This document shows, one piece after another, positions 17,760-63,028 of a stretch of DNA of 64,000 nucleotides; within the stretch, counting starts at the first letter, position 1; every line of letters starts with the position of its first letter. The stretch lies in NCBI GenBank assembly GCA_050949565.1, contig JBMNFY010000017.1:224001-288000 (forward strand), written 5' to 3'. The translations under genes were made by a program, and so were the position numbers. Source of the stretch: Kiritimatiellia bacterium. GTDB lineage: Bacteria; Verrucomicrobiota; Kiritimatiellia; RFP12; UBA1067. Under the pieces are notes generated by a model. The model was not told the DNA's origin, made no database searches, and was given only the letters and a program-made list of their open reading frames with translations.

Positions 17760-20700
17760 TCATTGTAGCGTGAACAGGATGCCGCGCGCTGTATCGCGGA
17801 TGTAGCCGTCTGCGGTCTGCCAGGCGCACCGTCCGGAGGGCGTGACAAAGCAACCGAGTTGCGTGGACGTGAGCTGCTGCTGGAAGCGCAGGGTGTCGGT
17901 CTCAAGATTGCCGGTCAGCGTGACGGTCGCGTCGGGGTCGAAGAGTGCCGGGCCGATGGCCAGCGGGGTCTCGCCGAAATCGAGCACTGACGTACCGGTG
18001 AAGAGCGTCTCTCCAGCAAGATTGAGTACGGCGGGCATTTGCGGACGGACGATGGCACTGTCGAGCGTGAGTGCGATATCACCCGTGAAGGCGTCGGCTG
18101 TAGCAAGCGTCAGCACGGCGTTGGTCGAGAGGCTCACCGTGAGCGGCACGTTCTGCGTGGCGGTGATGCGCAGCTCGGCACCTGACAGAACGGCGAGCGT
18201 GTTTGTGCCGGCGAGGGCGTTCGGCGCTTCGAGGCACAGCGCGCCACCGCGCACGGTGATCGGTCCGCCGAACGTACTGCCGGAAGCGGCGAGGATCATG
18301 GACGCCGGGCCGGCCTTGACCAGCGGCTGGTCGTAAAGTCCGATCTGCGGGTAATCGCGCATGGATGCGGTGACAGCGAAGTCAACATGGCACTCGACAG
18401 TAAAGGGGGCTTTTTGCGCATTATTGACGAGGGTGAAGCCTGCGGCGTTTGTGGAAGCCGCTGGCCCGAGAATCAGCCAGTGGGCGGCGCCCGCATTGCC
18501 GACGCGCACACGGTTGCCGACGAGGCGGGCTCCGTTCTGCAGCGTCATGTTGTTGGCGTATTGACCAGAATCGCCGATGTCGAAGGAATAGAGCCGACAC
18601 TCGGAGGCATTGAGCGTGATCGGGCGGGACATGCCGAGCGTGAAGAGACCGTTCGGGTACAGGATCGAGTCGCCAGAGAGCACAAGCGGACAGCCATTCC
18701 CGAGGCCCCCGGCATCGGGTGAACGGTGGAGCGCGGTAACGAGAGTAGCACCGTCTCGTACTTGGATAGAGGTGGGCGCGGGACTGGAAATGATGGGGGC
18801 GCTGATGTAGGCCGTGCGCCGCTCCACGGTAATCGGCCCGGCAAAGGCAGTGCCGCCGGAGAGCGTGGCCGGCAGCGGCGTGCCGCCTTGGATTAGGGCG
18901 AGCGACATCACGCCATAGCCTTCCGCTGTATTGTTGGTAGCGATAGAGGTGGTCGTCGCGCCGGGGTTAGTATCGAAATCAAAACCGGTCAGAAAGCGAC
19001 TGAGGACGTAGCTCGCATACTCGCAGGAGGCGACAATGTCAGAGCCCTGCTGCGCGAGGCGGACTTTCACGCACTTGGTGTGAACGTCGTCAAAAACTTG
19101 CGCTTGGAAGGCGACGGTACCATCCTCGGCGACACGCCAGTGATAGACGTTGGCTGGAACAGGGCTGCCCCGTCCGTCGCTGATCCACAACCCTCCCAAT
19201 GTGACGACCGCATCGGTGATCTCGGAAAGGTTCACGCCGGTCAGGACGGTGTCGGCGGCCGGCGCTTTCGGCAGAGGCACATTGTGAACCGGATTAGTGA
19301 CCGCCGACTGCGGGGCACCGGCGGGAGCAGCGATGCGCAGGGCGCCTCTGCCGACCGGCGCGACGGGGAGTGTGACGGGATCGAGCGTGTCCAAGGCGAG
19401 CAGCGATGCGACACCGGAGAGTGCGACACGCGCGGGGAACTGCTGTACGGGAGAGAAGGCGGCATTGCCCAGCGTGACGCGTCCCGGCAGATCGACAGGC
19501 TGTCGCGCGGTCAAGCCAACGGTTGTCAGGCTAGCCTGTAGACGGACGATATTGACGCCGTTGGCCGTGTCGGAACCGGTGGCCAGCGGCAACTCATCGC
19601 CTGCAAGGTCGAAGTCGATGCCGCGGCGATCTTGATGCGGGCTTTCGGGCAATACCAAGGACTTGGCGTAAAGCGCACGGGCGGAGAGTCCTGCCGCGTC
19701 CTCAGTGAGTTCGACCTTGACGCAATAGGTGGCGTTGGCCTCGGCAGCCTGAAACTGGACCGTGGCGGTCGTGGGCGAGGTGCGCTGCCAATGGAAGGGC
19801 TGAGCGGGCAGAAGATCCCGGTTGTTGACACCGCTGCCACCGATATACGCCTCAAAGTCGGTGACTCGATCAAGTTTCGCGTTGTCACCGGTCGCCAGTG
19901 TCGCAGCGGGTGTTTCGGTCGGCAGATAAGAACTGGTTGCGTGAGCCGGAAGAAGCATGAAGGCAGGGCAGCCGTACCCGCCTGCGGTGAGATTGGGAGC
20001 GATCGAACCCATGTCCCCGCCTGAGTCGAAATCGAAGCCGACCTGATATGCATCGCGGTGGTATTTCGCATACACGGCACGGCCATAAATGCCGTCCGGC
20101 TGCTGCGTCAGTTCGATCTTGAGGCATTTCGTGTGTATGCCCCTGTCGCGGCGCTGGAGTTGGAAGGATGCGGTGGCGCCGTCGTTCACAAAGTAGAAGA
20201 TGTGCGCGTCCGCATAATCGTCATCGAACGACCCACCGGCCATCAGAGCGGCGGCGGAGTGATAGTTCGCGAGCGTGGCTCCGGGGAAGAGCAACGTGGA
20301 CGAGGCTGTTATGAAGCTCGTGTGGATGAGCGGCTGCGGCGCGGGCGTATCCGCCACGCTCAGTTCTGGTGCGCGGAAGAGCATCAGGCTGGAAGCAAAA
20401 TAGTTGGTGCCGTTATCCGTGCCGGTAGTATCAAAATCGATGCGTCCGGCCATGTCATAGAACGTTTGGGCGTAACGAGCATAGACGGCGCGACCGTAAA
20501 TGCCGTCCGGCTGCTGTGCCAGCGCAACCTTCACGCACTTGACGAATTTTCCTTCGCGTGCACCGTTCTCGAAGAATTGCAGTTGGAAGGTGGCGTTCGC
20601 GCCATCGTTAGTGAAAAACAGGGCACGCGAATAGCTGTCTCTGTAAGCCAGTGCCACGCTCGACCCGGCGACGGTCCCCTCGGCACCAGTCACATCCGCC

Positions 20701-21077
20701 AGCGCGGCATCGGGGAAGAGCAGTACGCTATTGGTAGGAATTGCGCCGCCCTTCCAAGTGAGTGTCGGCAGAGACGCTTCAGACGCTGCCATGCCGCCCT
20801 CGACGGCGATATCCCGCGCACTGGGGCGGATCATGGTTTCGGCGGAGAGCCTGATCGCCGCCGCGATATCCTGCGACACGGTGATGACGGAGGGGTTGGT
20901 GACGGATGCGGTGTCGCCTACACCGGGCACGGCAGCCGGCGACCAGGCGGCGGGATCGTGGAAATCACCTGTACCGGCAGTGAAGACATTCGTCTCTCCG
21001 GCAGCGCAGACGGCCAACGGCACGACGAGCGCGAGAACTTGCAACATGACGGCATACGAGAAGATTCTGATTTTCAT
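17760..21077 (-). CDS. Large secreted surface protein with four copies of an unrecognised ~125-aa domain and an autotransporter-associated beta-strand repeat
   Basis: Signal peptide; repeats ATFQLQ..KC(V/L)K(V/I).L.QQPDGIYGRAVYA..DFD; LVKAGPASMIL...TFGG repeat; ends GILFTLQ. Confidence 0.8.
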   Translation of the reverse strand: MKIRIFSYAVMLQVLALVVPLAVCAAGETNVFTAGTGDFHDPAAWSPAAVPGVGDTASVTNPSVITVSQDIAAAIRLSAETMIRPSARDIAVEGGMAASEASLPTLTWKGGAIPTNSVLLFPDAALADVTGAEGTVAGSSVALAYRDSYSRALFFTNDGANATFQLQFFENGAREGKFVKCVKVALAQQPDGIYGRAVYARYAQTFYDMAGRIDFDTTGTDNGTNYFASSLMLFRAPELSVADTPAPQPLIHTSFITASSTLLFPGATLANYHSAAALMAGGSFDDDYADAHIFYFVNDGATASFQLQRRDRGIHTKCLKIELTQQPDGIYGRAVYAKYHRDAYQVGFDFDSGGDMGSIAPNLTAGGYGCPAFMLLPAHATSSYLPTETPAATLATGDNAKLDRVTDFEAYIGGSGVNNRDLLPAQPFHWQRTSPTTATVQFQAAEANATYCVKVELTEDAAGLSARALYAKSLVLPESPHQDRRGIDFDLAGDELPLATGSDTANGVNIVRLQASLTTVGLTARQPVDLPGRVTLGNAAFSPVQQFPARVALSGVASLLALDTLDPVTLPVAPVGRGALRIAAPAGAPQSAVTNPVHNVPLPKAPAADTVLTGVNLSEITDAVVTLGGLWISDGRGSPVPANVYHWRVAEDGTVAFQAQVFDDVHTKCVKVRLAQQGSDIVASCEYASYVLSRFLTGFDFDTNPGATTTSIATNNTAEGYGVMSLALIQGGTPLPATLSGGTAFAGPITVERRTAYISAPIISSPAPTSIQVRDGATLVTALHRSPDAGGLGNGCPLVLSGDSILYPNGLFTLGMSRPITLNASECRLYSFDIGDSGQYANNMTLQNGARLVGNRVRVGNAGAAHWLILGPAASTNAAGFTLVNNAQKAPFTVECHVDFAVTASMRDYPQIGLYDQPLVKAGPASMILAASGSTFGGPITVRGGALCLEAPNALAGTNTLAVLSGAELRITATQNVPLTVSLSTNAVLTLATADAFTGDIALTLDSAIVRPQMPAVLNLAGETLFTGTSVLDFGETPLAIGPALFDPDATVTLTGNLETDTLRFQQQLTSTQLGCFVTPSGRCAWQTADGYIRDTARGILFTLQ

Positions 21078-21220
21078 AGTCATCCCTTCTTCTGAGGCCT
21101 TTACAACGCAGGTTATCACTCCATCACGGTTGGTTTACAGTGCCGAAATCTGGGGAAAAAGTCAAGCCCATGGCGCGTTATTTTGTGGCCGGATTTGCCG
21201 CTTCGCGGCGAAAGGGCAGA

Positions 21221-21405: not shown

Positions 21406-21430
21406 ATCCCCCAAGTCGAGCCGTAAGGCA

Positions 21431-22697
21431 CTAGTGAATAAAAGTCACGCGATCCAGTGTCAGCCGCCGTAGGCCCTTGATGTTGAAGGCACCTTTGCCG
21501 CCCGGCTGCATTTCAAACCGCACGTTGCTCAAGAGGATGTCGCTGACATCATCGTCCGGGCGCAGCGTGAACGAGGGATACTCCGGTGAGCGGATCGTCA
21601 TGTTTGAAAAGGTCAGGTTGCGGATGCGGCTGACCTTGGTGTCTTCTGAGAACCTGACGCGGATCGGTGCATTGCGGCATTCGAGATTGATGTCGCTGAA
21701 ATGCACATTCTCGACCCCGAAGGGATGCACGGTTTCCGGCAGGGGCGGCACCCCTTCTCCGCGCGGCGGGTCGTTCGGCACATGCTTCATATCCGGCATA
21801 TCGATGTTGATGCCGGTATGAGACTCGCGGATCACCAGATTGCTAATACGGCAATCCTTGATCAGATAGTCGTGGGTCCAGCCGATGCGGATGGCCGCAG
21901 AGTTGCTCTGCAAAACGCAGTTCGCCACCACCACCCGCTCGCACGCTACAGGTCCGTGCAACTGATGCTGGTAAGCGCGCAGGATCAGCGCGTCATCGCC
22001 GCTGCGCACGATGCAGTCGCTGACCGTCACGTCGCGGCACGACCCGATGTGAATGCCGTCGCCGTTCGGAAAGCGCAGATCCATTTCGATTTTCAGGCCG
22101 CGGACCTGCACGAACTCGCAATCCAGCAGCCACATGCTCCAGCCCGACGGGTTCAGGATCGTGACATCATCCAAGCCGGACGTTCTTGCACCCGACCAGA
22201 AAGATGTTGCGCCCGGTGATCAACTGATCGTGCTTGCGACGCCACCAATGCGTCCCTTCGGTCTTTTCATGAAACAGCTCCGCGCGCCCGTTGATCGTGC
22301 CCCGGCCGCAGATCGCGATATTGGTCTGCGCCACGGCGTAGAACATCGCACGCTTGTTGCGGCGCAGGCTGTACTCGACCCGCCAGTGCGGCGAGGGTTC
22401 AAATTCCGGATAGAGGAGCGGATCGGGACCGCCTTCCAGCGAGGCACCGGCCTCGATTTCCAAGCGCGTGTTCGAGCGCGGGTAGAGCGTGTAGGTCATA
22501 AAGGCCCCGCCCGCGACCCGCACCGTGCCGCCGCCGGCCGCCGCCGCTGCGTCGATCGCCTTCTGGATCGCCGCCGTGTTGTCAGTTTTGCCGTCCGGCA
22601 CCGCACCGAAATCCGTGACACAGAACACTCCGTCCTTGCCCGCGCCCTGCGCAACCGCCGCCGCTACCACCAGCAACCACCCGACCATCCTTCTCAT
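21431..22697 (-). pseudogene. GH28/pectin-lyase-fold glycoside hydrolase split by a 1-nt frameshift near 22175
   Basis: DFGAVPDGKTDNTAAIQKAID and PNGDGIH..GDDAL motifs lie in different frames; removing 1 nt gives CKNVRLDDVTILN. Confidence 0.8.
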
Positions 22698-22830: not shown

Positions 22831-22859
22831 TTGACGGGGACGTGGCGGAAGGATACGAT
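22831..22859 (+). promoter_or_regulatory. Sigma70 promoter
   Basis: TTGACG-17 bp-TACGAT. Confidence 0.65.
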
Positions 22860-22940
22860 AAAAACACTGGCGATTATCATGAGTTGCAGGTTACACGGCT
22901 GGGCTGTTGCGGTTTCAGCCGCTTGATAGGAGAGTCCCAC

Positions 22941-25900
22941 ATGAACGTACGGCTTCTGGGTATGAGTTCTTTCACTGCGGCGTCACTGCGTGTCGGCACC
23001 GTTCTTCTCACTTGCTTGCTTCTTGAGGCCTCAGCCGCTCCAACCGGTGCGGGCTATCGCGAAACGGTCATTGCCCCCGTACCGGCCGGCGAGACATCGA
23101 ATCTCGTGGACCGCCTTTTTATCTCGGAGGGGACATACAACAAGACCGAGGCCGGGACGCTTGCCCTGGCGGCCTCCAATTTGGTGCAACAGGGAGAAGG
23201 GCGCCTCGTTGTCCGAGAAGGGGCGCTGCGCATTCAAGGCGATACGCGTACGCTCGCCGCACCGGCACCCTGTCCATACGAGATTCTCGCCAGTGCCGCC
23301 TTTTGGGTCGACGCCACGACCAACCTCGTCACCGTTTCCTCCAACGACAACACCTATGTCGACGCCTGGCTCGACGTGCGCGAACCCGACACCGGAGCCC
23401 CCTTCCTGTATCCGCGCGCTGTCGCCAACTGGACATACACCAACATCTCCCCCCAATGTATTTTGAATGCCGGCACCGACGGCACCATGCCCTCCGTCTG
23501 GTTCGGCCGCTACGGCTCGTTGCGCACCATGACGTGGACCACGCCGGAAAACACGGTCGCTAACTTCACCAAGATCTACCACGTCTTTGCCGTCCACGGC
23601 GTTTTCCAGTCTTATGGCTACGTTTTCGGTAGCATGTCTGACGGCATGCCCGACTTCCACATCACTGATTTTACCACCGGATCACCCACCGCAATGATCT
23701 GGCATCCAAATGAATGGTCGACCACAGCCGTCCGTCAAGGGCGCACCTATCTGGACGGCGTGCGTATCGACGGCACCGCACTCCCGCCGAAGCGAGGCTG
23801 GCAATTGCTGGAAGTGGCCATGGCCGGCAAGCTGTCACAGGCCGCCAATTTTTTCAATGACCGCGGCATCATGTCTTCCGGCAAGCGGGCCGGTGGCGAC
23901 AACCTGTGCGAGGTGGCCGTCTTCACCAACCGCCTCAGTGAAACCGAGCGCATGCTGGTCCAGTCTTACCTGATGCAGAAGTGGCTTGGGACGAAAGCCC
24001 AGATTCCCCCGATCGTCCATGCCAGCGCTTCTGGAACCGTGATTGCCGACGCGGCCGAAAACAACACCCTGGCCCTCCGTCTGAACGGCGACGGCACCAT
24101 CCAGAAGCAGGGGGCGGGACTTGCGGTCCTTGAAGCCACGCCTGCATCCTCCAGCATCTTTCGTTCCGCCGTCGTGCAATCCGGCACGCTTGACGCGCGG
24201 CTCCCCGTTCCGCTGTCTTTGACAGCGGGGGACCGAGTGACCACGTCAAACACCGCGATCAGCGTGACCCAAGACGCCGGCGCTGGACAACTCGCCAAGG
24301 ACGGCCCCGGCACTGTGACGCTGTCATCTGTGCCCGACGGCGTCACGCAGGTCAATGTGAACGGCGGCACCGTGGTCCTTGCAACGCCCGCGAACTCCGT
24401 TTCCGTCACGGCGGTCATCACCGGCAGTGTCCCCAACGCCACGTTCGAATCGGAGCAACTTACCTCCGACAACCGCCGCATCGCCGACGGCGAGACCTAT
24501 CACGGCTGGACAGCCTACGTTCCTCCCCCGTACCCGGGTGCTGACAACGCGGTTTTCATTTTCAACCGCCAGCGCGCGGCCGAAGCCTCCAAGTGGCCCT
24601 GTGACTACGATGCGCCCGAGGGCCTGCAAGTCCTCGCGCTCAAGCAAGATGCCTCTGTGTCCACGTCGCTCTCATTGCCTGTCGCAGGTCTTTACGACGT
24701 GTCTTTTTACACCTCCGCGCGCTCGTTCCGCACGGGAAGACACGAAATCGACCTTTGTCTTGTCGAAGGCGCAACAACCAACGCGGTCACGACCGTCCAA
24801 ACGGTCAACCAAGCCTATGCCCGACAATCCTTCCGCCTGCCGTGGCTGGAGGCCGGTACCCACACGCTGCTCTTCCACCGCAACGTCGCCGCCGTCGACA
24901 CGCTGGGTACGATTGATGACATCAAGGTGACGCTGGTCTCGACGGTCAACCCCAACACTGTCAAAATTCCGAACGGGGACTTTGAACTGACCGACTATCC
25001 GCGCGACCCGACAACTTTCACGACCTCCAACGTGGCCCGTGGCTGGACGTTTACTGCAGTCACGAACGGGGAAATCTCCGCCGGGATTACGATGCCGGCA
25101 TCGTCTGTTTACGCCTACACGCCCTCCACGCCGTACGGTGTGGTCATGCTCTGCCTGGCCAGCAACGGGTGCGCACGAAGCGCGTCGTTCGCGTTGCCGG
25201 CCGGCACCTATGCCCTGCAGGGAGCTGTTTGCAAGTGGCCCTGCCGGATCGGCAACAAATATCTCCAGGCAACCCAATCGATCAAAGCCACTGTCGCACG
25301 CGCGACGGGGGACAGCATCGAACTGGGCACTCTGGAAACTTCCGGAAGCATCCTCACGACGAGACGCTGGCCCACCGCCTTCACCGTGACCGACAACGAA
25401 ACCATCACGCTGACGCTGGCGGGCACGGGCACATCAGGCGTCGGACTGATCGACAACCTCGAGTTGATCCCGCAGACAAGTAGCATCATCCAGAACGGCG
25501 GCTTCGAGAGCGCCGCAGGCTGGTCGTTTTTCGCTGACAAAGTGAGCCAGCCGAAGGCGGCGGCGTGGTACAACGAACTGTCGTCGTCGAACCACTACGG
25601 AACGGCGATTTATGACGGTGTGCGGCGTCTGCTTCTAGTTCAAACCGGTGCAGCCTTCCAAGACATTCAAATTCCCGCACCGGGCCTCTACCGGCTGGTA
25701 TTCCACGCCGCCCAGCGGTGTCCGCTGACCTACGGCAATGTCTACGGACACAACCCCGTGCGGGCGTGGCTGGCCCGTGACGGTGCGACCAACGTGATCG
25801 GCTGGACGCGTGTTGACGACAATGCCATCGTCCGACGGGAGTTCCTGTTCAACGTGGCGGTGGCAGGAACGTATCGCTTCGGTCTGCAAGGCATGAGCGA

Positions 25901-26195
25901 CAACTCACCCCAGTATCCGGGAACCGACCAGAATGCTTTGATCGACGGCGTCTCAATCGAGCCCGCATCCGATCTCGCGCCGGCCGACATCCCGCTACCC
26001 AAAAACCTGTCGATCAATGTCGCCGAAGGCGCATATCTTCAGCTTTCCTTCGCGAGTACGCAAAAGGTCGAGCGCGTCAAGCTAGGTGGACATTTCGCCG
26101 TGGGTGTCATCAGTCAGGAGACATATCCCGACGCGATCATTGGCCCCGGTGCCTTGTATACCACGCCTAAAGGATCGCTCATGATGCTTCGTTGA
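22941..26195 (+). CDS. Large secreted protein with LamG-like domain and three galactose-binding-like (CBM) domains
   Basis: AGGAG RBS, signal peptide; EVAVFTNRLSETER..VQSYLMQKW; three NxxFE...IDxI/L/V modules; KDGPGTVTL repeats; ends GSLMMLR. Confidence 0.8.
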   Translation: MNVRLLGMSSFTAASLRVGTVLLTCLLLEASAAPTGAGYRETVIAPVPAGETSNLVDRLFISEGTYNKTEAGTLALAASNLVQQGEGRLVVREGALRIQGDTRTLAAPAPCPYEILASAAFWVDATTNLVTVSSNDNTYVDAWLDVREPDTGAPFLYPRAVANWTYTNISPQCILNAGTDGTMPSVWFGRYGSLRTMTWTTPENTVANFTKIYHVFAVHGVFQSYGYVFGSMSDGMPDFHITDFTTGSPTAMIWHPNEWSTTAVRQGRTYLDGVRIDGTALPPKRGWQLLEVAMAGKLSQAANFFNDRGIMSSGKRAGGDNLCEVAVFTNRLSETERMLVQSYLMQKWLGTKAQIPPIVHASASGTVIADAAENNTLALRLNGDGTIQKQGAGLAVLEATPASSSIFRSAVVQSGTLDARLPVPLSLTAGDRVTTSNTAISVTQDAGAGQLAKDGPGTVTLSSVPDGVTQVNVNGGTVVLATPANSVSVTAVITGSVPNATFESEQLTSDNRRIADGETYHGWTAYVPPPYPGADNAVFIFNRQRAAEASKWPCDYDAPEGLQVLALKQDASVSTSLSLPVAGLYDVSFYTSARSFRTGRHEIDLCLVEGATTNAVTTVQTVNQAYARQSFRLPWLEAGTHTLLFHRNVAAVDTLGTIDDIKVTLVSTVNPNTVKIPNGDFELTDYPRDPTTFTTSNVARGWTFTAVTNGEISAGITMPASSVYAYTPSTPYGVVMLCLASNGCARSASFALPAGTYALQGAVCKWPCRIGNKYLQATQSIKATVARATGDSIELGTLETSGSILTTRRWPTAFTVTDNETITLTLAGTGTSGVGLIDNLELIPQTSSIIQNGGFESAAGWSFFADKVSQPKAAAWYNELSSSNHYGTAIYDGVRRLLLVQTGAAFQDIQIPAPGLYRLVFHAAQRCPLTYGNVYGHNPVRAWLARDGATNVIGWTRVDDNAIVRREFLFNVAVAGTYRFGLQGMSDNSPQYPGTDQNALIDGVSIEPASDLAPADIPLPKNLSINVAEGAYLQLSFASTQKVERVKLGGHFAVGVISQETYPDAIIGPGALYTTPKGSLMMLR

Positions 26196-26209
26196 CGCGT
26201 GTTCGGGTA

Positions 26210-34115: not shown

Positions 34116-34269
34116 GGTCCCTCACTTTCATGGGTTCGATGGTAGCAGAGCAGCCGGGCAAGCGCAAGACTCGTCAATCTTCGCGATTTGCGATTTGAGA
34201 TTCCATTTCCACCCGTAGCGTGATATTCTTCGTGACACTGACGAAAACGCCTTACGATTGGAGTCCAAC

Positions 34270-40200: not shown

Positions 40201-40508
40201 TCACGACCGGCCCGGTCACATTCGCGGCCGGCACCGCGTATCTCTGGGACTGGAACGCCGTCGGCGCGGGCGGCACGTTGACCGCAGGCAGAATCGTCCT
40301 GCCGGACGCCTTCACGATCATGGCGGCGCAGGGCGGCCAACCGCCCGCCCGCTGGCCGGTCTTGGTTTCGGAAGACGCGCCCCTCGGGACGCCCCTCGAA
40401 TCGATCACGCTCGTCGGTTTCCCGAACTCCGTAAAGGCCGAATATTCCGCCGACGGACGCACCCTTCTCCTGACCAATCAGCGCGGCACCGTCATGACTA
40501 TTCAATAG
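34270..40508 (+). CDS. ~2070-aa secreted surface protein (beta-strand repeats, CBM-like, PA14, duplicated domain), frameshifted near 39090-39120
   Basis: Protein-like sequence stops at LTNEEVP and resumes in another frame as TATLTLAPPADESAHYAG; ends GTVMTIQ. Confidence 0.75.
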
Positions 40509-40665
40509 CCGGACGGCAAAGATTCGTCTTTCTCCTTTGGGGAGGGCGAGCGTCCTTACGAGTCGCCTGAGCAAACGACCAAGGGGGACCCCTGATTTTC
40601 ATGGAGTTTCATGTGTTTCATGGTCCACTTGGACGTTGAACATTTCGACATCCAGCGTTCTATCC

Positions 40666-54715: not shown

Positions 54716-54721
54716 GTCATC

Positions 54722-54746: not shown

Positions 54747-54763
54747 TCTTTACCGTCCGCCGC

Positions 54764-56104
54764 CTACTTGCCAGACACCGGCGCAGCGGCGAGTTGCGCC
54801 TTGATCCAGCAGAAGATGGTGTCCCCTATCTGACGATAGCCCTCCGGAGCGGGATGAACACCGTTATTCAGGCGGCGTCCCTCCGCCTTCGTCTGGGAAT
54901 TCCACGGCGCGTTGACCGAAGGATAGTTGTGCAGGCAGTCGAGGTTGACGTTGGAAGGGATGAGAAAGATATTTTCCTTCTCGCGTTTGCCGTACTTTTC
55001 CATCGTCCGCTCGACCACCCGCTGCTGATTCCGTTTGTATTGCCAACGGGTCTGTCCGCACTTGTAGTTGGCACCAAAGCCGTCCTGTGTTCCCACGGGC
55101 GGCACGAGCAGCAGCATCCCGATCTTCGTGTCGGCGCGAGTCTGGCGGACCATCTCGATCAACATGTCGTAGTATTTGAACATGGTGTCGATGCTGGCTT
55201 CAATGGTCTCGTCGTTGGCCCCGAAGTTGTCATTGCACCCCAACAGGAAAGTGACGAAATCGGGCGCCTTGCCCCCATTGAATTCCCGACAGTAACGGGG
55301 AAAATCCAGCGCGGGCTTTCCCGTGCCATCCGCATACAGGAACGGGCTGCCGCTTGAATTCCACGTTTTCCAGTCCTCCGTTCCGTTCCGCCTTTCTCCT
55401 TCTTTGTAGAATGTGGCGAAACGATGCGCGGTCCATCCACCATACCCCTCGATACGGACATCCGGAGTTTTCGCGTTCGGGACATGCCCAACCAAAGTGA
55501 TTTTGGGGTTACCTTCGGCCTTGCACAACTCCAGCAGGTGCGCGGGATACACGGCGGCATGCGTCAGGCTGTCACCGATTGTCAAGACACTGATGGGCAA
55601 CCCCGCGCCGGCCGTTTTTGGGGCGACCTGCAGAACAGACTCCGCGCGGGCAATGACCGCATTTGTTTCGTTCCGGACTTCGATGACGAACGGGTATTGG
55701 CCCACATCCTCCTCCGTCGGAACAAATGTCCAACGCTCAGTCTGCTGGCTTCCTTTCGCACAGTTCACGTCGAACAGATAGTTTAAGGGATTGGCCACGA
55801 GGCAGATGTTATCGAAATACACATTCATCTCGATGCCGGGCGTAGCGTAAATACGCGGCGGCAACAGGAGACGAATGGTTCCCGGAAACTGTGCGGGCAC
55901 CGTGGCCTGCGCCAGCAGACTTGCGCACGACAACACGGCCAGCAGGACAACGTGAATGCGATGGATAGTGAGGGTCTTGCAAACCTCCTTGCTTACAGGT
56001 GTGGCACGGGCATCTTGCCCGTGTTTCATGGGCGGGACGCCCATGCCACGAGGGATTTTGCAAGAATCTCTAGTTTTAATCGTGAATCCGGCTTTCTGTG
56101 TCAT
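54764..56104 (-). CDS. Secreted SGNH/GDSL hydrolase
   Basis: IGDSLT, EGYGGW, LGCND, GVHP blocks; RBS before MTQKAG. Confidence 0.88.
   Translation of the reverse strand: MTQKAGFTIKTRDSCKIPRGMGVPPMKHGQDARATPVSKEVCKTLTIHRIHVVLLAVLSCASLLAQATVPAQFPGTIRLLLPPRIYATPGIEMNVYFDNICLVANPLNYLFDVNCAKGSQQTERWTFVPTEEDVGQYPFVIEVRNETNAVIARAESVLQVAPKTAGAGLPISVLTIGDSLTHAAVYPAHLLELCKAEGNPKITLVGHVPNAKTPDVRIEGYGGWTAHRFATFYKEGERRNGTEDWKTWNSSGSPFLYADGTGKPALDFPRYCREFNGGKAPDFVTFLLGCNDNFGANDETIEASIDTMFKYYDMLIEMVRQTRADTKIGMLLLVPPVGTQDGFGANYKCGQTRWQYKRNQQRVVERTMEKYGKREKENIFLIPSNVNLDCLHNYPSVNAPWNSQTKAEGRRLNNGVHPAPEGYRQIGDTIFCWIKAQLAAAPVSGK
55970..56070. mobile_element. 101-bp MITE carrying a REP doublet, 4-bp target duplication TAGT
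   Basis: TIRs GAGGGTCTTGCAAA and (rc) GAGATTCTTGCAAA; TAGT at 55966-55969 and 56071-56074. Confidence 0.85.
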
Positions 56105-56269
56105 ATTACCCCTCTCTTTGCTATTGAAAAAATCGACAGAACCGATTGAACCGAATCCATCGATTCCATCGATTCTGTCGACCATTCCCCCATCTGGGTT
56201 CAATCCGCGAACCAGACACCGACGGTCTCCGCAAAGGCCGTCAGATCGGGCAGACAGAGTCGCGTCCGG

Positions 56270-59200
56270 TTACCTCAGGAAGAGGATCGAGCCAAGGAGC
56301 GTATTGATCGTGAGCTTGCCGTTGCTGAGGAAGAGGTACTTGCTCTCATCCAACACGTTGCCCTGCGCGTCCATCAGCACCAGCGTCGGCTTGGCCCCTA
56401 CCCAGGTCGCTCCGGTGAAGTCGGCCAGAAGCGTCGAGCCGCGCGGTACGGGCGTCGGCACGACCACGGTCAGCACACCGCCAGGGGCAGCCACCGCACC
56501 GGTCACCACCAGCTTGGCACCGCTCCCGATCGTCAGGCGCTCCAGCCCCAGCACACCGGTACCGGTTCCGTTGGCTGCCACGTTCACCGTTGCTGTGCCC
56601 GCCGCAACCGTCACGTTGCTGGCCGCGACCTCATAATCCGCATTGTCCATCGATCCAGCGGCAGGTGACACGTTAAGGGTTGCGCCGTCCCCAAGATTGA
56701 ACCCGCCAAGCGAGAACGCGGCATTGTCTTCAATGAGTAGTGCCGTCAACGCGCCGCTCTGCCCATCCGCGACCGAGACCGTGTTGGCGTAGTCGGTCGA
56801 TGCCGGCACCGCGTCAACCATCGCGAAATCGCCGACGAACTGCTGGGCGGTTGCGCCGCCGGTCCCGCCGGTGAAGCCGACGTATGCACCACCTCCGCCG
56901 AACATCGCATACAGATCCACAATGCGCTCCGCCATGTAAACCTTTTCGCCTTGAGTCACGGTTACGATCAGTTTGATGCCGTCATAGACGACATCCACAT
57001 CCACACCAGCCACCAGATCGAGCCCGTTGATCGCGGTGGTGGCGTCCACTCGGGCGCCATTCTCGATCCAGCCGATGCTGTCGGCGTTGTAGATGTTGAA
57101 GAAGAGGCCGATCGAAGGCGTGATCCCATTCACACCGATTTCTCCGCCGCTCGCGCCCAGCGCCGTGAGGCCGCGCCCATCGTTCTGCAGAATGAAGGCG
57201 AAGCCGTCAGCCGGACTTGTCATCTTGTCGCCGGTTTCGTAGCGGAACGAGGCGTACCACGGCAGGTGCGGCGCCGCGACCTGCGTGTTGCAGTAGGCGC
57301 TGCCAGCCAGGCTGCCCGCATTCGCCGTGAGTTGCAGCCACTGGGCGTCGTAGCGTGTCGCCCATGTGGCCGACCCGTTGCGCGTCCACTCGGCCTGATC
57401 CAACGGATGCGCCAGTTCATTGGTGCCCGGCGTGACAGACGGTTGGATTGCGAGGGTTCCGCCGTCCAAGGCCACGTCACCGCCGCCGCCCAGCGCGGCC
57501 GGCGAGGCGACCCGCACGGTCGCGCCGCCCTCGACGCGCGTCGTGCCCGCATAGGTGTTGGCGTTATTCAGCACCAGCGTGCCGGTGCCGGAGACCACGA
57601 GCTCGCCGTCGCCGACCAGGTCATCCATCAGACCGCTCTGGTAGCGCGTTCCCGAGGTCTCGACCTCGACGGCCGCGGTGTTCGTCACAATCACCGCGTC
57701 GCCGAGCGTGGCGCCCGGGGCGAAGGTCAGCCGGCCGTTGTTGACCAGCACCGTGCCGGCGAAGACACTGGCTGACGTGACGTACACCTCGCCAGGGCCG
57801 TCCAGCACGATCAGACCGTTGCCCGAGATCATGCCGTCGACCGTCACCACGCCGGCGCGGTCAAAGGCCAACGTGCCGCCGGCGTCAACCGCCACGGCCG
57901 CGCCCGTCCCCAGTGCGCCGCTCAATCCGCCGTCGCCCACGCGCAGCGTGCCGCCGACCACCGCATAGCCGCCGGAATAGGCGGCATTGCCATCGGTCAG
58001 CGTCAATGTTCCCGGACCGTCCTTCTGGATGAACGCGCTCGCCGATCCGACGAAGCTGCCGGCGAAGAGCGTGTCGGCTTCCTGATCGATCACGACCGCC
58101 GCGTCGGTGCTCAGATTTACCACGCTGCCAGCTTCGCCCGCGAGCCCGCGTAACGCCGCACCGCTGAAGAGGATCGCCTGCGGCAGCAGGTTGGTCGTGC
58201 CGCCCGGGTAGGCGATGAAGGCGCGCAGCGCGTTGCCGCCGATGTTCTCGCGATAAAGGATATCAATATCGTGGAAGCCAGCCGTTAGCGCGATCGAGCC
58301 GTAGCGCGCGGTCACGCCCTGGTCGTAGCCGTTGTTCACGACCAACTGGCCGTTGATATAGAGCATGCTGCCGTCATCGCTGGCCGTGCCGAACGCATAG
58401 GTACCGGTCTGGCCGAGGAAAATCTTGCCGGACGCATGGAAGTCATAGAGGTCACCCTGCGCGCCGCCACTTTGCTTGTACCGATCAGGCCATTTTGAGC
58501 CGTCCGTGCCAGTGTCGAAATTGGTGCCGAGCATCAGCGAGTTGGTCACATAGTTGGGCCCGCCCGGGAAGGTCGATGCCAGATAGGTGTACCACGCGTC
58601 CAGCGATTGAAACTCACCGTACTCCGCGTCCGACGCCGAGCGGTTATAGAAGCGCATCTCAAGCCCCGTGCGCCCGAACACCTCGGCCGCAGTGCCGGTT
58701 GCCAGCGAAAGCGTGCCGAGCACGCCCGCGCCGTTGGTGAGCACCACGCCGCCGGCGCGCACATCCAGCACACCGAAGTAATCGCTATTGCCGGAGTCGA
58801 ACGTCAGGATTCCCGTGCCCTCTTTCACGACGCGTCCCAAGCGGTTCGATCCGAGGAAACCGCCGCAATAGGTCATGTCGGCGTCGTCGGTCACGCGCAG
58901 TGTGGCCGCGCCCAGGTCCGTGAAGCGCACCGCGCCATCCGCGCCGTCCAGCGTCCCGACCCGCGCCTCGCCCGAGTCTGTCCCGGTGTAGAGCAGATTG
59001 TTGGGAAGCTCCCGCAGCGCCACGGCGCCCGGCGGCCTGAACCACACGGTCAGCCCCTGGTCGCCGCTCGCCTCGAAAAAGGCGATGGCGATCTGGTGCA
59101 TGCCGGCCTCCAGTTCGACGTAAGTCACGACATTGCTGTCGCCCGGCGTATAACTCTGCATGGCGTTGTTGTCGACGACCATCTGCCCGTCGATGAAGAG

Positions 59201-62200
59201 CACGCTGCCGTCGTCGCTGGCTGTGGCAAAGCCGTAGCTCCCGCTCGTTTGCGCCGCGAAAAGTCCCTCCCACAACACGGCGAAGTTGCTGGTGTCCTTC
59301 ACATTATAGGGTGCCGGGAAGCGCGAGCCGGTATTCAGCGCGTTGAAGGTAGCGCCAAAGCCAGTGCTGTTATGGACGACATTCGGCGTCTTTCCGCTCA
59401 GGAAGTTGGTCACTGCGGCGTAGGACACGAAGTCGCTCACGGAAGGGACTGCAGCCAGCGTGTAGTATTCGCCGATCAGGCCTTGTGTGCCGAACGCCAC
59501 GCCCAGCGTGCCGCCGGCAGTCTCGACCACACCGGTGACCGCAGTATTGCCGAACAGCTCCAGCGTTCCCGCGCGGATCTCGGCGTTGGCAAAGGATCCG
59601 TCCGGATGGGTTAGCCTCTGCGTCCCGCCGCCGACTTTAATCACATCGAGCTGCGGATCGGTGGTGCCGGCGAACGAGGCCGTCACGTTGTCCGCGCCGA
59701 CATAGAGCGCCGTGGTGGTGCCCACGCTGTCCTTGACCTGTCCGGCACCGTTCAGGCCGCCGACCTGCAGATCGCGCCCATCGGTCTCCAGCGTCGCGCC
59801 GGCGGCGATCGTCACCGCCCCTTTGCCGGCCCCGCTGGGCAGGACATTGGTTGCGGTCACGCGCAACGTGCCGGCGTCGATGTAGGTGACGCCGCCGTAG
59901 CTGTTCTGTCCGGAGAGCGTGAGCGTGCCGCTCCCCTCTTTGCGCAGCGAACCCGCGCCGGAGAAGGGATAAGAGAGGGCCCAGTCGCTGTTGTAGTTGA
60001 GCGCAAGCGTTCCGTTGACCGCGAAGGTGCCGGCGGGCGACCAACTGAAATTTGCGCCGTCGCCGATCCTCAGGTTGCGTCCCGACGGGATGTCGAGCAG
60101 TCCGCTGTAACTGTTGTTCGCGCCGGCGAAGGTCACCCAGCCGCCGTCGGTGGCCGTGATTTTCCCTGACCCCGCCAGATTGCCGGCAACGGTCATGGCA
60201 AAGCTGCCCCACGGATGCAGCTCGAGTCCGCCCGGGCCCACCGTGACGCCGCGGTTGGCCGGCAGAGTGAAGTTGGCGTTGCCGCTGCGGATCACGCCGT
60301 TGTCCACATAGAGATTGTCCGGGTCGGGCGCGGCCGGCACGGCACCCAGTCCGTCCTCTTTGATGAAGAGCACCCCGCGGTTCGTCACCACCGTGCCGCC
60401 GGAGTAGGTGTTGCCGCTCTTCAGCTCCACGATGCCGGGCGTGCCGATGACCACGCCGGTCGCTTCGGCGCCGTCGGCCAGATTGCTCACGGAGAGCCCG
60501 CGGTTGGACGCACTGACGTAAACCTGATTGCCGCCGCCGAGCAGATAGGTGTCGGTCGCGGCCGCCGGCGTCAGCGTGCCAGCATAGTCGAGGCTCAGCT
60601 CGGCCGCGCCCACCGTGAGGCCGGGATGGTTGCTGAGGTCGATGTTCTGCGCCGCGTTGGCGCTGCCCAGCAGCAGCACGCCGGAGGAGCCAGACGTGAT
60701 GCGTCCGGTGACCAGCGCGTTCACGTCCATCGCCGCGGTCAGGCGCAGGACCGCGCCGTGGCTCAGGTCGATGTCCGGCACGCCGGGTGTCCCCTGCACG
60801 CCGAGCGCGTTAGCGTGAGCCAGCGTCACCGTCGCGCCATCGATCTCTGCGCCGCCGGTGAAGGTGTTGTTGCCCGCGAGCGTCATGCCGCTGCCGTTCG
60901 CGCCGATGACGGTCAAATGGCCGGGCGTGGCGCCGGCGTCGGCGATCACCGCGTCGTAGACGACTGTGCCGCCCTCGGTTTCAAAGGTGTAATCGCCCTG
61001 ATACGGGGTGAAGGTGCCGGTGTACGTCAGCGCCCCCACAAAGGCCAGCCGCAGATCCGGGAAGGACGAAAAATCGACGGCATCCGCGGCATTGGCCGGG
61101 AAGAGGGCGAGCGCGCCCTTGGATGCGGGATCCATGCGCGCCAGCAGCAGGGCCGGACCGCCCGCAGCGGCATAGCCGATCGCGGCATCCGCCGTGTTGG
61201 TCAGCGTGACCGTGCCCGCGTAGCCGGCCGGCAACCCGTTGGTGTGGCTGAAGAAGAGGTCGCCGGCCAAGACATCGATATCGCCGGTGAAGGTGTTGGC
61301 GCCGGCGAAGGTGATCCGTCCCGCGCCGCTCTTGGTCAGGCCGCCGCCGATGCTGGCCGGGTCTTCGGTCAGGGCCTGCGCCGCCGTAACCGCGACACCG
61401 GCGGGCACGCTGAAGGCCGCACCGCCGGCCTGCACGCGGGCCGCCGTCAGGTTGTACATGAAATCGGTGCGCGAATTCACGGCCTCGACCGTGCCGCCGT
61501 TCAGGAACAGCAGATTGGTGCCGGCCGTGGCAGACGCATAAAGCCGCTGCGCGCGGAGGATGCCGCCGTTCAGGGTGACTGCTCCGTACGCAGCGTTGGT
61601 GGCTGTGCCGGTGCTCCACACGAGGCTGTCGGTCGCGTTAACCAGACCGCCGTTGACCGTGATCTCACCGCGCGCGCCGTTGGCGTTGACGACAAGATTC
61701 TTGCCGGGCAGGCGGCAGCCGAGTTCGCCGCCGTTGACCGTGACGGTCGCCTGCGCGCCGAGGCTGCTCGCCGCATAGAACCAGCCGTTGGACACAAAGG
61801 CGCCGCCGCCGTCACCCACTGTCAGACTGCCGACACTGCCGGCGCTGGCAGCCACGATCAGGTCGCGGTCCACATCGATCACCGCCGGATCGCCGCTGCC
61901 GCCGACCGTCGCCGTGGCATCGCCGCCGCGCACGCCCATGTTGAGGTTGATCGCGCCGCTGCCGGGCACCCGAAGATGGCCGTTGGCGACCGTCAGGGCA
62001 AACGCCGCATTGTCCGCCAGCTCGACAGAGGCCAGCGCACCCAGCGTCAGCTTCGCGCCGCCGCTGATCGTCAGGCCGCCGGCGGCCGGAAACAGATGAT
62101 TGAGCATCAGGTCGCCGGAGAGCACCGCGATGCCGCCGTTGTTGATCCAGACCGTTTCGCCGTTCTCGCCGACATTGCCGCCTTGCCAGTTGGCCGGATC

Positions 62201-63028
62201 GGCCCACGGCAGCGGTGTGCCCGCCGCGCCGGCCCAGATCGTCTGATACTGGCTGTTCTCAAGCTGATAGTTGGCGACGACCTGCGCCTCGCTGAGCGTG
62301 CCGCTGTGCACGCGCACTTTGGAGATCGACCCGCTGAAGAGCATCTGCCAGTTCTTGGCCCCGCGGTCCCAGACCCCGCCCAGGGCAAAGGGTGCCCCGC
62401 CGCGCAGATTGCTCACCGCCGGGGTCTTGGCAATGCGCAGCGAACCGTCGGCATAGAGCCGCTCGACGCCGGCGGCGTCGCGCGTGATCACGATGTGGTG
62501 CCACAGCCCGGCCATCGGCGGCGTGCCGTTCCAAGGAATGTTGCAACTCCCGTTGTAGTGCTCCACGGCGTTCCCGGCATCCGAGCCGTAACGGATCTCC
62601 ATGCAGGTGCCGTCTGCCGAGCCTGTCCACAACCCGCGGTCGGTCCAAGACAGCAGGTTCTCGGCCCCCTGCTGAAGCACCGGGTTCAGCACCCAGATCT
62701 CGGCGCTCCACACCGTATTCTCACCCAGCAGCGAGGCCGCCGGCGCGACGGTGTTGGTCATGATTGAGTTGGCCGAGGCCGCAAAGGTCACAGCCGGTGC
62801 GCCGCTGACACTGGCCTGATACACTGCGCCCGTACCCGCCATCGCCGGCACAAAATTCCCGCCCAGCGAACCGGCGTTGGTCCAGGCGCTCACCGCCGTG
62901 TCCGGCGTCCAGGCAGACAGCGACGCCGCATCCACATCCACGAGCAAATCGCCCGCAACTTTGAGTTGCGCGTGCGCCGCACAAACCGACACCAACAGAA
63001 CAATACCTGCCCTCAACCCAATTCTCAT
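56270..63028 (-). CDS. ~2250-aa secreted adhesin/lectin-like protein (LamG, autotransporter-associated beta-strand repeats, two PA14, legume-lectin domain), no beta-barrel
   Basis: GGAGG RBS, signal peptide; WHHIVIT..LYADG; repeated K.G.GTL.L...NTY.G; two F.TASDDGS.L.I.G; PADGFAFILQ..AYVGFTGGTGG; ends GSILFLR. Confidence 0.88.
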   Translation of the reverse strand: MRIGLRAGIVLLVSVCAAHAQLKVAGDLLVDVDAASLSAWTPDTAVSAWTNAGSLGGNFVPAMAGTGAVYQASVSGAPAVTFAASANSIMTNTVAPAASLLGENTVWSAEIWVLNPVLQQGAENLLSWTDRGLWTGSADGTCMEIRYGSDAGNAVEHYNGSCNIPWNGTPPMAGLWHHIVITRDAAGVERLYADGSLRIAKTPAVSNLRGGAPFALGGVWDRGAKNWQMLFSGSISKVRVHSGTLSEAQVVANYQLENSQYQTIWAGAAGTPLPWADPANWQGGNVGENGETVWINNGGIAVLSGDLMLNHLFPAAGGLTISGGAKLTLGALASVELADNAAFALTVANGHLRVPGSGAINLNMGVRGGDATATVGGSGDPAVIDVDRDLIVAASAGSVGSLTVGDGGGAFVSNGWFYAASSLGAQATVTVNGGELGCRLPGKNLVVNANGARGEITVNGGLVNATDSLVWSTGTATNAAYGAVTLNGGILRAQRLYASATAGTNLLFLNGGTVEAVNSRTDFMYNLTAARVQAGGAAFSVPAGVAVTAAQALTEDPASIGGGLTKSGAGRITFAGANTFTGDIDVLAGDLFFSHTNGLPAGYAGTVTLTNTADAAIGYAAAGGPALLLARMDPASKGALALFPANAADAVDFSSFPDLRLAFVGALTYTGTFTPYQGDYTFETEGGTVVYDAVIADAGATPGHLTVIGANGSGMTLAGNNTFTGGAEIDGATVTLAHANALGVQGTPGVPDIDLSHGAVLRLTAAMDVNALVTGRITSGSSGVLLLGSANAAQNIDLSNHPGLTVGAAELSLDYAGTLTPAAATDTYLLGGGNQVYVSASNRGLSVSNLADGAEATGVVIGTPGIVELKSGNTYSGGTVVTNRGVLFIKEDGLGAVPAAPDPDNLYVDNGVIRSGNANFTLPANRGVTVGPGGLELHPWGSFAMTVAGNLAGSGKITATDGGWVTFAGANNSYSGLLDIPSGRNLRIGDGANFSWSPAGTFAVNGTLALNYNSDWALSYPFSGAGSLRKEGSGTLTLSGQNSYGGVTYIDAGTLRVTATNVLPSGAGKGAVTIAAGATLETDGRDLQVGGLNGAGQVKDSVGTTTALYVGADNVTASFAGTTDPQLDVIKVGGGTQRLTHPDGSFANAEIRAGTLELFGNTAVTGVVETAGGTLGVAFGTQGLIGEYYTLAAVPSVSDFVSYAAVTNFLSGKTPNVVHNSTGFGATFNALNTGSRFPAPYNVKDTSNFAVLWEGLFAAQTSGSYGFATASDDGSVLFIDGQMVVDNNAMQSYTPGDSNVVTYVELEAGMHQIAIAFFEASGDQGLTVWFRPPGAVALRELPNNLLYTGTDSGEARVGTLDGADGAVRFTDLGAATLRVTDDADMTYCGGFLGSNRLGRVVKEGTGILTFDSGNSDYFGVLDVRAGGVVLTNGAGVLGTLSLATGTAAEVFGRTGLEMRFYNRSASDAEYGEFQSLDAWYTYLASTFPGGPNYVTNSLMLGTNFDTGTDGSKWPDRYKQSGGAQGDLYDFHASGKIFLGQTGTYAFGTASDDGSMLYINGQLVVNNGYDQGVTARYGSIALTAGFHDIDILYRENIGGNALRAFIAYPGGTTNLLPQAILFSGAALRGLAGEAGSVVNLSTDAAVVIDQEADTLFAGSFVGSASAFIQKDGPGTLTLTDGNAAYSGGYAVVGGTLRVGDGGLSGALGTGAAVAVDAGGTLAFDRAGVVTVDGMISGNGLIVLDGPGEVYVTSASVFAGTVLVNNGRLTFAPGATLGDAVIVTNTAAVEVETSGTRYQSGLMDDLVGDGELVVSGTGTLVLNNANTYAGTTRVEGGATVRVASPAALGGGGDVALDGGTLAIQPSVTPGTNELAHPLDQAEWTRNGSATWATRYDAQWLQLTANAGSLAGSAYCNTQVAAPHLPWYASFRYETGDKMTSPADGFAFILQNDGRGLTALGASGGEIGVNGITPSIGLFFNIYNADSIGWIENGARVDATTAINGLDLVAGVDVDVVYDGIKLIVTVTQGEKVYMAERIVDLYAMFGGGGAYVGFTGGTGGATAQQFVGDFAMVDAVPASTDYANTVSVADGQSGALTALLIEDNAAFSLGGFNLGDGATLNVSPAAGSMDNADYEVAASNVTVAAGTATVNVAANGTGTGVLGLERLTIGSGAKLVVTGAVAAPGGVLTVVVPTPVPRGSTLLADFTGATWVGAKPTLVLMDAQGNVLDESKYLFLSNGKLTINTLLGSILFLR

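Follow-up and report, generated by a model that had tools for sequence, protein, structure and literature searches.

Why four large signal-peptide proteins of otherwise different domain content should end in the same type of heptapeptide is the question raised by this window, the whole stretch of 64,000 nucleotides of Kiritimatiellia DNA analysed here. The initial annotation proposed a C-terminal sorting or secretion signal. The features concerned are:

17760-21119, minus strand: tail protein 1, ~1,105 aa counted from the probable Met, with a signal peptide, repeated lectin-like modules and a weak beta-strand repeat
17763-17783, minus strand: heptapeptide GILFTLQ of protein 1; the translation ends in TARGILFTLQ and stop
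22842-26195, plus strand: tail protein 2, ~1,084 aa from the Met at 22941; signal peptide and jelly-roll modules
26172-26192, plus strand: heptapeptide GSLMMLR of protein 2; the translation ends in TPKGSLMMLR and stop
34258-40508, plus strand: tail protein 3, a 2,082-aa ORF ending in an autochaperone-like beta-helix cap and the tail
40485-40505, plus strand: heptapeptide GTVMTIQ of protein 3 (end NQRGTVMTIQ and stop), without secondary structure in the AlphaFold2 model
43386-43613, plus strand: 'FYR' FN3/Ig-like C-terminal module of a BspA-type LRR gene, an alternative to the tail
54764-56203, minus strand: SGNH hydrolase without the tail, located 67 bp downstream of protein 4
56270-63043, minus strand: tail protein 4, 2,257 aa; signal peptide, LamG-like domain, PATR repeats, two PA14, L-type lectin, cap and tail
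56273-56293, minus strand: heptapeptide GSILFLR of protein 4; the translation ends in TLLGSILFLR and stop

Translation bears out the four tails, with Gly at position -7 in all four and R or K before it in three. As annotated, the GH2, GH28, SGNH and esterase enzymes of the window do not end in the tail, and the four proteins have no C-terminal barrel (no PF03797 match). The passenger-type repeats ascribed to all four are strong in protein 4 only (PF12951, E 1e-27), being weak or under the cut-off in proteins 1 and 3 and without an HMM match in protein 2. The 'penultimate strand' noted ahead of the motif belongs to the preceding domain rather than the signal, as other tails come after LamG, Ig domains or Pro-rich linkers. 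The tail is kept in 45 of 48 homologues of protein 2. Protein 3 lies in two frames in the assembly (34258-39507 and 39198-40508); the contigs of all four public runs have one base fewer near 39090 and another fewer near 39110, and removal of these two bases gives the single ORF of 2,082 aa, which makes the split an assembly error.

Genome-wide, the regular expression of the initial annotation matches 54 of 3,279 predicted genes, against 9 of 22,220 shadow ORFs. At internal positions it has 33 matches in 1,300,231, which gives 0.08 expected at termini; 54 observed against 0.08 expected excludes chance. The genome holds about 90 tail proteins overall, of which the window is a sample; the census includes three repeated LamG-like ORFs and leaves out four chance matches. 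The consensus is G-[TSML]-h-h-h-h-[RKQ]-COOH, although some members have Ala, Ser, Pro or Arg instead of the -7 Gly; the hydrophobic fraction is 0.91, 0.99, 0.71, 0.99 and 0.00 from -5 to -1, and the I/V/F share is 41%. In related genomes, heuristic prediction assigns signal peptides to 25 of the 28 complete tail ORFs, and only two chance matches fall on ordinary genes of this genome; the tail thus goes with signal peptides and is not a feature of cytoplasmic proteins. Nor is it restricted to giants, as first supposed: carriers range from mini-proteins of 70-120 aa to giants of up to 4,800-6,400 aa. Glycan-binding and adhesin-like proteins make up most of the cargo, and a tail gene is often the first of a carbohydrate-enzyme operon, an order exemplified by protein 4 and the SGNH hydrolase.

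The tail is independent of the domain before it. The 91 tail proteins include 60 C-terminal groups without BLAST links, passenger-type repeats are limited to 31 of 90, and the tail comes after Pro-rich linkers, LamG, S8, PQQ and Ig domains as well as on 70-aa mini-proteins. The AlphaFold2 model places the last strand at residues 106-111 of 120, the tail past it being unstructured. The tail is thus confined neither to one paralogue family nor to a beta-helix cap. Sorting models of NCBIfam and Pfam gave no match to it.

Many members share a cap domain resembling autotransporter passenger ends (Ssp 8e7f, probability 1.00, TM 0.63, E 0.011; the match to the IcsA autochaperone is weaker). Among 29 loci with the same cap, five have tail ends, all from the tail's own order, four have PEP-CTERM, four a clear and two a degenerate FYR end; the rest are one barrel-like end, 12 that run off the locus edge and one misframed. 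The FYR module, which fills the tail's slot in other proteins and other taxa, was considered as a possible T9SS CTD; it has generic FN3/Ig matches only (best Z 7.8), with no T9SS CTD among those listed. In the own order, PEP-CTERM sits on few, small proteins and the large passengers have the tail. Thus, the tail occupies the slot where relatives have known surface-sorting signals, and since its carriers are, to judge from sequence, exported, it is probably a new export address label. A cap-plus-tail profile and sampled DNA place it in one order of Kiritimatiellia only among the genomes searched, narrower than the PVC-wide scope first proposed. The same cap is present without the tail in other orders, and a search of passenger-rich DNA from 12 Kiritimatiellia of other orders turned up no tail. 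Sampled DNA of reduced genomes yielded no tail in 200 kb of G242 and one in 125 kb of G125, too little for a negative set.

Only two secretin machines go with the tail throughout: a T2SS without detectable GspC and an Amuc_1098-1102-type pilus. The T2SS of this genome is complete (E-F-G-H-I-J-K-L-M-D) and single-copy. GspC was detected in none of five genomes (controls positive) and in none of 21 T2SS loci, and cargo would therefore need another handle. Of 65 own-order genomes, 64 have the GspD of this T2SS and the remaining one has GspK; the Amuc_1098-type secretin is present in 62, and contig breaks account for two of its misses. GspD is also present in all of 16 Kiritimatiellia from other orders in which no tail is seen; neither machine is specific to the tail, and the reader is therefore unproven. 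Instead of the dedicated translocator envisaged initially, the candidates are general secretin machines. No order-specific gene that might act as reader is present in the T2SS operon, and tail genes do not lie near it (one weak match in ~1.1 Mb of own-order T2SS-flanking DNA). The three other secretins (C18, C17:757k and C17:185k), considered as readers, are absent from tail-rich genomes, and the apparent secretin losses in G083, G201 and G174, considered as natural knock-outs, are assembly gaps. Among genomes with the FYR domain, G081 is without GspD and GspL orthologues and G131 without the Amuc system, hinting at a third route. In sum, the sorting-signal reading withstands all three refutation tests named in the initial annotation (frequency on cytoplasmic proteins, confinement to a paralogue family or cap, match to a described model), while its PVC scope, its restriction to giants and its dedicated translocator are not supported.

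We give even chances to the heptapeptide being a portable linear C-terminal export tag, read by the T2SS or the Amuc_1098-1102-type pilus. Sec would take the protein to the periplasm, as the heuristically predicted signal peptides suggest, where it would fold, in about one-third of cases into a PATR beta-helix with a predicted autochaperone-like cap. The tail would stay free: Gly or another small residue at -7 may form a turn, the four hydrophobic residues, rich in I, V and F, may dock by beta-strand addition into a groove of the reader that buries both their faces, and a polar or basic residue at -1 may shield the end from tail-specific proteases, given the preference of these enzymes concerning the C-terminal residue. 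The reader would be a secretin or type-4-filament machine. The single-copy GspC-less T2SS is the most likely option, if a tentative one; the pilus, which would work in the way the TcpF export signal binds to a tip pilin, is a more doubtful candidate.

The mini-proteins of 70-120 aa consist of a signal peptide and the tail, with little more than short strands between, and form a family of 284 clusters at 50% identity. They flank tail-less FGE-domain genes in 19 of 30 loci against 0 of 80 control loci, the pattern having been defined after the loci were viewed. This synteny suggests that they may bind the adjacent FGE proteins and so supply the tag in trans. The predicted complex of a 91-aa mini-protein and its FGE neighbour, both modelled without alignments, scored 0.00, which speaks neither for nor against binding, and a metagenome scan with a mini-protein as query found no relative. 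The fuller scheme, in which folded proteins of 70 to >4,000 aa would leave via the GspC-less T2SS or the Amuc_1098-type pilus with mini-proteins as adaptors for untagged enzymes, is plausible, though we hold it less probable than the tag itself. Folded rods of up to 4,800-6,400 aa would be hard to load from the periplasm, and the autochaperone cap beside the tail suits threading from the C-terminus better.

Several known systems offer parallels. According to the source cited, GlyGly-CTERM and MYXO-CTERM cargo needs T2SS (10.1101/2023.06.07.544157); the T2SS link of sorting signals found elsewhere in the same slot supports T2SS as the reader. Signals of T2SS are described on Ig/Fn3 folds, in the Fn3 loops of PelI/Pel3 and the Ig fold of VesB (PMC12369372, PMC7949064), on signal-peptide proteins exported in the same two steps, and a complete T2SS is present here. 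However, the signals these sources describe are conformational (PMC7949064), a point against the T2SS route, and partly GspC-dependent, whereas here the tail is linear and GspC undetectable. A short disordered terminal peptide of TcpF is described as sufficient for T4P export; like the tail, this TcpF/CofJ signal of type IVb pili sits on a Sec-exported protein, and it is transferable and read by a type-4-filament machine, but it is N-terminal with one substrate per system, whereas the tail is C-terminal on about 90 proteins (PMC10120004).

Among the alternatives, barrel-less autotransport survives best, although we consider it unlikely. BamA/TAM or an unrecognised outer-membrane translocon would take the tail, and the passenger would be threaded C-terminus first and fold from the cap. 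Type Va autotransporters share PATR repeats (PF12951) and the cap fold with about a third of the tail cargo (31/90); the likeness of the cap to 8e7f, the giant cargo size and the lack of a consistent secretin across FYR-domain genomes all favour such a route, as does the G-x-x-h-x-h spacing of the tail, which resembles the Omp85 beta-signal. However, the beta-signal is an amphipathic last strand with an aromatic end: 13 barrels of this genome have alternating last strands ending in an aromatic residue (hydrophobic fraction 0.08 at -4, 0.15 at -2 and 1.00 at -1), whereas both faces of the tail are hydrophobic and its last residue never is. Type Va autotransporters carry a barrel, and none is found in tail proteins or by PF03797 in the genome (92% complete, controls positive). 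A PF01103 search found one Omp85 protein, an ordinary BamA, and no extra paralogue to serve as reader; the barrel candidates scanned are TonB receptors, porins, OmpA or TPR-deacetylase-barrel proteins, a few being without a name. Moreover, PEP-CTERM and FYR ends come after the same cap, and passenger repeats are absent from two-thirds of tail proteins. The TPR-plus-barrel pair at C16:45-49k, considered as a translocon, has a polysaccharide-deacetylase-like middle and, from its sequence, reads as exopolysaccharide export. For two-partner secretion (type Vb), PF03865 (TpsB) had no match in the genome, its controls being silent too, and no Pfam TPS domain matched the 28 tail ORFs. T9SS cargo likewise combines a Sec signal with a C-terminal signal on many large surface proteins, but the T9SS C-terminal domain is a folded domain of about 70-80 aa as against seven residues; no CTD model matched the tail proteins, and PorV was not found in the genome (control positive), while in the SprA search the controls were silent.

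Slightly less probable still, the tail may be a donor strand completing an Ig-like fold on a scaffold or partner, in the periplasm or at the surface, and so assemble glycan-binding proteins and enzymes. Its I/V/F-rich composition and two hydrophobic faces would suit this role; mini-proteins of short strands adjoin Ig-FGE genes, and tail genes often lie upstream of signal-peptide enzymes (22 of 55 co-oriented neighbours, against 86 of 348 for signal-peptide genes). However, Ig-FGE partners were not found in the tail-rich genomes G179, G192, G236 and G241, the neighbourhoods of the 91 tail genes are enriched neither in a recurrent machinery gene nor in a scaffold family common to them, the slot is exchanged with sorting signals, and an exit would still be needed.

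Quite improbable, in our judgement, is a PEP-CTERM that has lost its membrane helix and is still cleaved or lipid-linked after Gly by exosortase or another membrane protease. In the PEP-CTERM/exosortase system (PMC1569441) and other tripartite CTERMs (PF07589, GlyGly-, MYXO-CTERM) a short C-terminal tag likewise marks numerous unrelated proteins that a single genome exports via Sec, and PEP-CTERM takes the same slot after the same cap. The presence of exosortase in 46 of 47 own-order genomes and the division of small and large proteins between PEP-CTERM and tail fit this origin, and the best register puts G-T/S on PEP+1/+2. However, the seven residues contain no PEP signature, transmembrane length or Arg cluster, and the Gly is replaceable. 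The tail matrix scores a mean of -2.5 on 41 PEP-CTERM ends (3/41 above 6) against 14.7 on tails. Exosortase can be accounted for by the real PEP-CTERM proteins that coexist with the tail (50 of 52 genomes), and no cognate protease of the tail was found. A structural strand that caps the beta-helix or completes the last domain, and that spread by paralogy, is disfavoured and very improbable: the cap is common to many members, but the unlinked groups, the variety of preceding contexts, the unstructured modelled tail and the folding of the same cap without it in other orders all speak against it. The tail is not a PEP-CTERM, not a beta-signal and not a structural cap.

Our literature search, limited to freely accessible papers without their supplements, found no description of the tail. 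The pattern puts a name to a sorting class so far lacking next to PEP-CTERM and the likewise unmodelled FYR domain, and it exposes an overlooked family of genes for proteins of 70-120 aa. Substrate choice by T2SS has long been an open question as no linear signal is known; with a heptapeptide that one can attach or delete, the question becomes directly testable, and the heptapeptide could find use as a secretion tag of minimal size. Should the fuller scheme with the mini-protein adaptors be true, T2SS-type export would gain its first linear, transferable signal. Irrespective of what reads the tail, the pattern predicts which proteins are exported by abundant uncultured polysaccharide degraders of the rumen, gut and digester.

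Translation confirmed the four C-termini reported in the initial annotation, and a proteome scan with its regular expression found the tail, a C-terminal heptapeptide with glycine at position -7, well beyond them: in the genome under study (G000; 4.66 Mb, 92% complete), 54 of 3,279 genes predicted with our own gene caller match, versus 9 of 22,220 shadow ORFs. Internally, the expression has 33 matches in 1,300,231 positions, which gives 0.08 terminal matches expected. The terminal tail is not due to chance and is a genome-wide feature. Scores of a 10-column tail matrix are bimodal (80 genes pass a score of 8 or of 10, and 81 pass 6), and moving the matrix 1-50 residues inward leaves 0-2 matches. 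With fragments and relaxed variants included, G000 has 91 tail proteins, with the consensus [PSA]-[RSG]-G-[TSLM]-[LVI]-[LIF]-h-[LIV]-[RKQ]-COOH and the glycine present in 89 of 91; the final census of 90 counts in three LamG-like ORFs and leaves out four chance matches recognised by eye (a phage head protein, a fumarase subunit, a shadow ORF and an amidase). Of 178 ORFs of at least 1,000 aa, 30 bear the tail. Another genome carries at least five tail proteins of 2,700-2,900 aa in tandem array (G192:C66:232000-275000; L314, L315).

The window spans G000:C17:224001-288000. Of its four tail proteins, all of which had been credited with passenger-type repeats, only protein 4 (56270-63043, - strand) has strong PATR repeats. 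Protein 3 (34258-40508, + strand) is split in the assembly; in contigs from four of four public runs a base is missing near 39090 and another near 39110, so that it is a single ORF of 2,082 aa. Unlike this split, that of the neighbouring BspA-type LRR gene (40744-42474 and 42249-43613, + strand), in two pieces through a frameshift, is real in the populations of runs X1 and X12, since their contigs show the same frameshift gap-free. A short intergenic element after protein 3 (40530-40625) is covered by reads at very high depth and varies between strains in its insertions, indicating a multicopy repeat. In the assembly, the GH28 gene (21431-22697, - strand) consists of two ORFs, 22167-22697 (with signal peptide) and 21431-22174.

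The tail is portable and is placed after differing domains. Examined for restriction to one paralog family, the C-terminal regions of the 91 tail proteins form 60 groups unlinked by BLAST. Pfam searches of 23 proteins (21 with tail) returned LamG, PATR, S8 peptidase, FAD oxidoreductase, PQQ propeller, InlB B-repeat and PD40; PATR-like repeats occur in 31 of 90 tail proteins, and Pro-rich linkers precede several tails. Among 48 homologues of protein 2, 45 retain the tail and the other three appear truncated or frameshifted. Signal peptides, called by our own heuristic (positive on 593 of 3,196 other G000 genes), were found on 54 of the 91 tail proteins with frameshifted pieces chained, most misses starting mid-domain. 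In eight cleaner genomes, they were found on 25 of 28 complete tail ORFs; one of the three without is a shadow ORF of 50 aa.

The slot after the cap, an autochaperone-like module preceding many tails, also receives another C-terminal module:

Window 43386-43613, + strand: FYR domain, also in about 35 genes of G000

This domain of about 70 aa, an FN3/Ig-like six-stranded sandwich with the terminus F-[FY]-[RK]-h, has no model in Pfam or NCBIfam, and its fold matches are generic only. It occurs on large secreted proteins throughout the phylum (other Verrucomicrobiota loci: L055, L058, L064, L327-L346) and is probably a second undescribed sorting domain. A cap-plus-tail profile matches 47 of 151 genomes of the phylum; within the order of G000, RFP12, it matches 42 of 111 genomes in 9 of 11 families (E 1e-7). 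Among the 150 matches listed (185 others apart), nearly all extend to profile positions 117-120. At 29 non-self cap loci, the ends are tails (5, all in this order), PEP-CTERM (4), the 70-aa FYR domain (4), degenerate FYR (2, one in this order) and, judged from sequence, a barrel-like end (1); 12 loci run off and one is misframed. Passenger-rich DNA totalling 372 kb, drawn from one other-class genome and 12 other-order Kiritimatiellia, yielded 0 tails, 18 PEP-CTERM ends and 13 matches to the FYR regex, of which two are shadow ORFs. All three types coexist in G000, where tails number about 90 and FYR domains about 35, with 2-3 PEP-CTERM. The tail thus occupies the slot of sorting signals and is limited, among the DNA examined, to one order. 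Giant passengers of other orders (L334, L345 (G029, G059), L336, L337) bear further distinct end modules, neither tail, PEP-CTERM nor FYR, common to G029 and G059.

The analysis shows a tail that is fixed in position and portable, goes with signal peptides, changes places with other modules in its slot, is restricted to one order and, on mini-proteins, is syntenic with FGE genes, and we infer with considerable confidence that the tail is an export or sorting tag. It would be added as a beta-strand to the machinery recognising it, with both faces buried. We see an even chance that this reader is a secretin machine. G000 has five secretin systems, three of which were rejected as readers, being missing from tail-rich genomes. 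A T2SS is a possible, still doubtful, reader. G000 encodes a complete one, whose GspD exceeds the TIGR02517 cut-off and has its closest relatives in Kiritimatiellia/Verrucomicrobia (Ca. Spyradenecus, 47-50% identity). GspD is present in 64 of 65 genomes of the order, and the remaining one has GspK. GspC was found in none of five genomes (controls positive) and in none of 21 T2SS loci. Kiritimatiellia keep this single-copy T2SS, GspC undetected, even at a genome size of 1.3 Mb (G000:C4:32264-45073, L111; L166-L185). An Amuc-type pilus is a somewhat unlikely reader: the Amuc_1098-1102-type cluster occurs in 62 of 65 genomes of the order, two misses being contig breaks and the third a genome (G242) 88% complete with 0 tails in 200 kb. 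This MUL2-type cluster (G000:C17:1465994-1473711; L114) is conserved across Kiritimatiellia, and assemblies break at a long Pro-Ala repeat in its secretin. The T2SS operon is alike inside and outside the order. Because GspD is also present in 16 of 16 other-order genomes and T2SS loci show no tail-gene clustering (one weak match), the secretin profile narrows the candidates without choosing among them.

Recognition by Omp85 or another translocon is unlikely. One BamA is encoded in G000, in which neither an autotransporter barrel nor PorV was found; searches for SprA and TpsB were blank, control queries being likewise silent. The beta-signal consensus, the size of the T9SS CTD, PATR function and tail-protease preference are general knowledge. 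As a beta-signal the tail was rejected: it is hydrophobic from -5 to -2, never at -1, and 13 of the genome's own barrels differ. That the tail is a docking strand is distinctly unlikely, and that it is a protease-processed remnant is improbable; exosortase is present in 46 of 47 genomes and own PEP-CTERM substrates in 50 of 52, and comparison of the tail matrix with PEP-CTERM ends ruled out a PEP-CTERM identity. A structural cap can be dismissed as highly improbable: in the AlphaFold2 model of the commonest pre-tail module, the cap (26-row alignment, pLDDT 84), which is similar to the autochaperone ends of autotransporters (8e7f, prob 1.00, TM 0.63, E 0.011), the last strand stops at residue 111 of 120 and the tail is unstructured, predicted to be free after the cap. 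Elsewhere in G000, a frameshifted TPR + deacetylase-like + beta-barrel gene (G000:C16:45180-48855; L356) resembles a fused PgaA/PgaB exopolysaccharide exporter.

For the preferred reading, an export or sorting tag read by a secretin machine, published work offers support by analogy. It is reported that GlyGly-CTERM and MYXO-CTERM cargo depend on T2SS (10.1101/2023.06.07.544157), that T2SS signals are borne by Ig and Fn3 folds (PMC12369372, PMC7949064), that TcpF owes its export, via a tip pilin, to a disordered terminal peptide (PMC10120004), that K. glycovorans has a T2SS (PMC5148204), that the Amuc cluster is the pilus-like MUL2 (PMC13174399) and that T2SS/T4P genes often flank Omnitrophota giant genes (10.64898/2026.06.07.730766).

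Some tails stand on very small proteins beside tail-less genes with an FGE-sulfatase domain:

C17:821905-822180: mini-protein ORF of 91 aa with signal peptide and tail, upstream of two tail-less FGE-sulfatase-domain genes
P0100, P0116, P0120, P0126, P0137, P0194 (loci L087, L091, L095, L098): mini-tail or FGE proteins, each in frame behind an N-terminal ECF sigma or anti-sigma-like domain

Three of nine FGE-like genes in G000 lie directly downstream of a tail gene. The FGE subfamily occurs in 48 genomes, all in this order; in the 20 inspected, 19 of 30 loci have an adjoining 70-120-aa ORF with signal peptide and tail, versus 0 of 80 controls (secretin, PEP-CTERM and cap loci), the pattern having been defined after the loci were viewed. 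None of the FGE protein ends inspected bears a tail. With a mini-protein profile, 284 clusters were retrieved. Among the 150 best, 116 have glycine at -7 and hydrophobic residues at -4 and -2; at least two of the matches are unrelated repeats. Named members are mostly hypothetical proteins of Kiritimatiellia. This synteny suggests that mini-proteins may act as adaptors for FGE proteins. In the ECF/anti-sigma-like fusions, the mini-tail or FGE part retains its own internal Met and signal peptide, suggestive of dual-start regulatory fusions.

C-terminal sorting tags are already a known kind, and the tail fails the defining test of every such family compared. In line with the comparison with CTERM models proposed initially, its modules match no NCBIfam or Pfam model, and no description was found in the open-access literature searched. 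What is new here is the controlled census, the four-way swap in the slot, the exclusion of several readers, the lead of a GspC-less T2SS and the mini-protein family.
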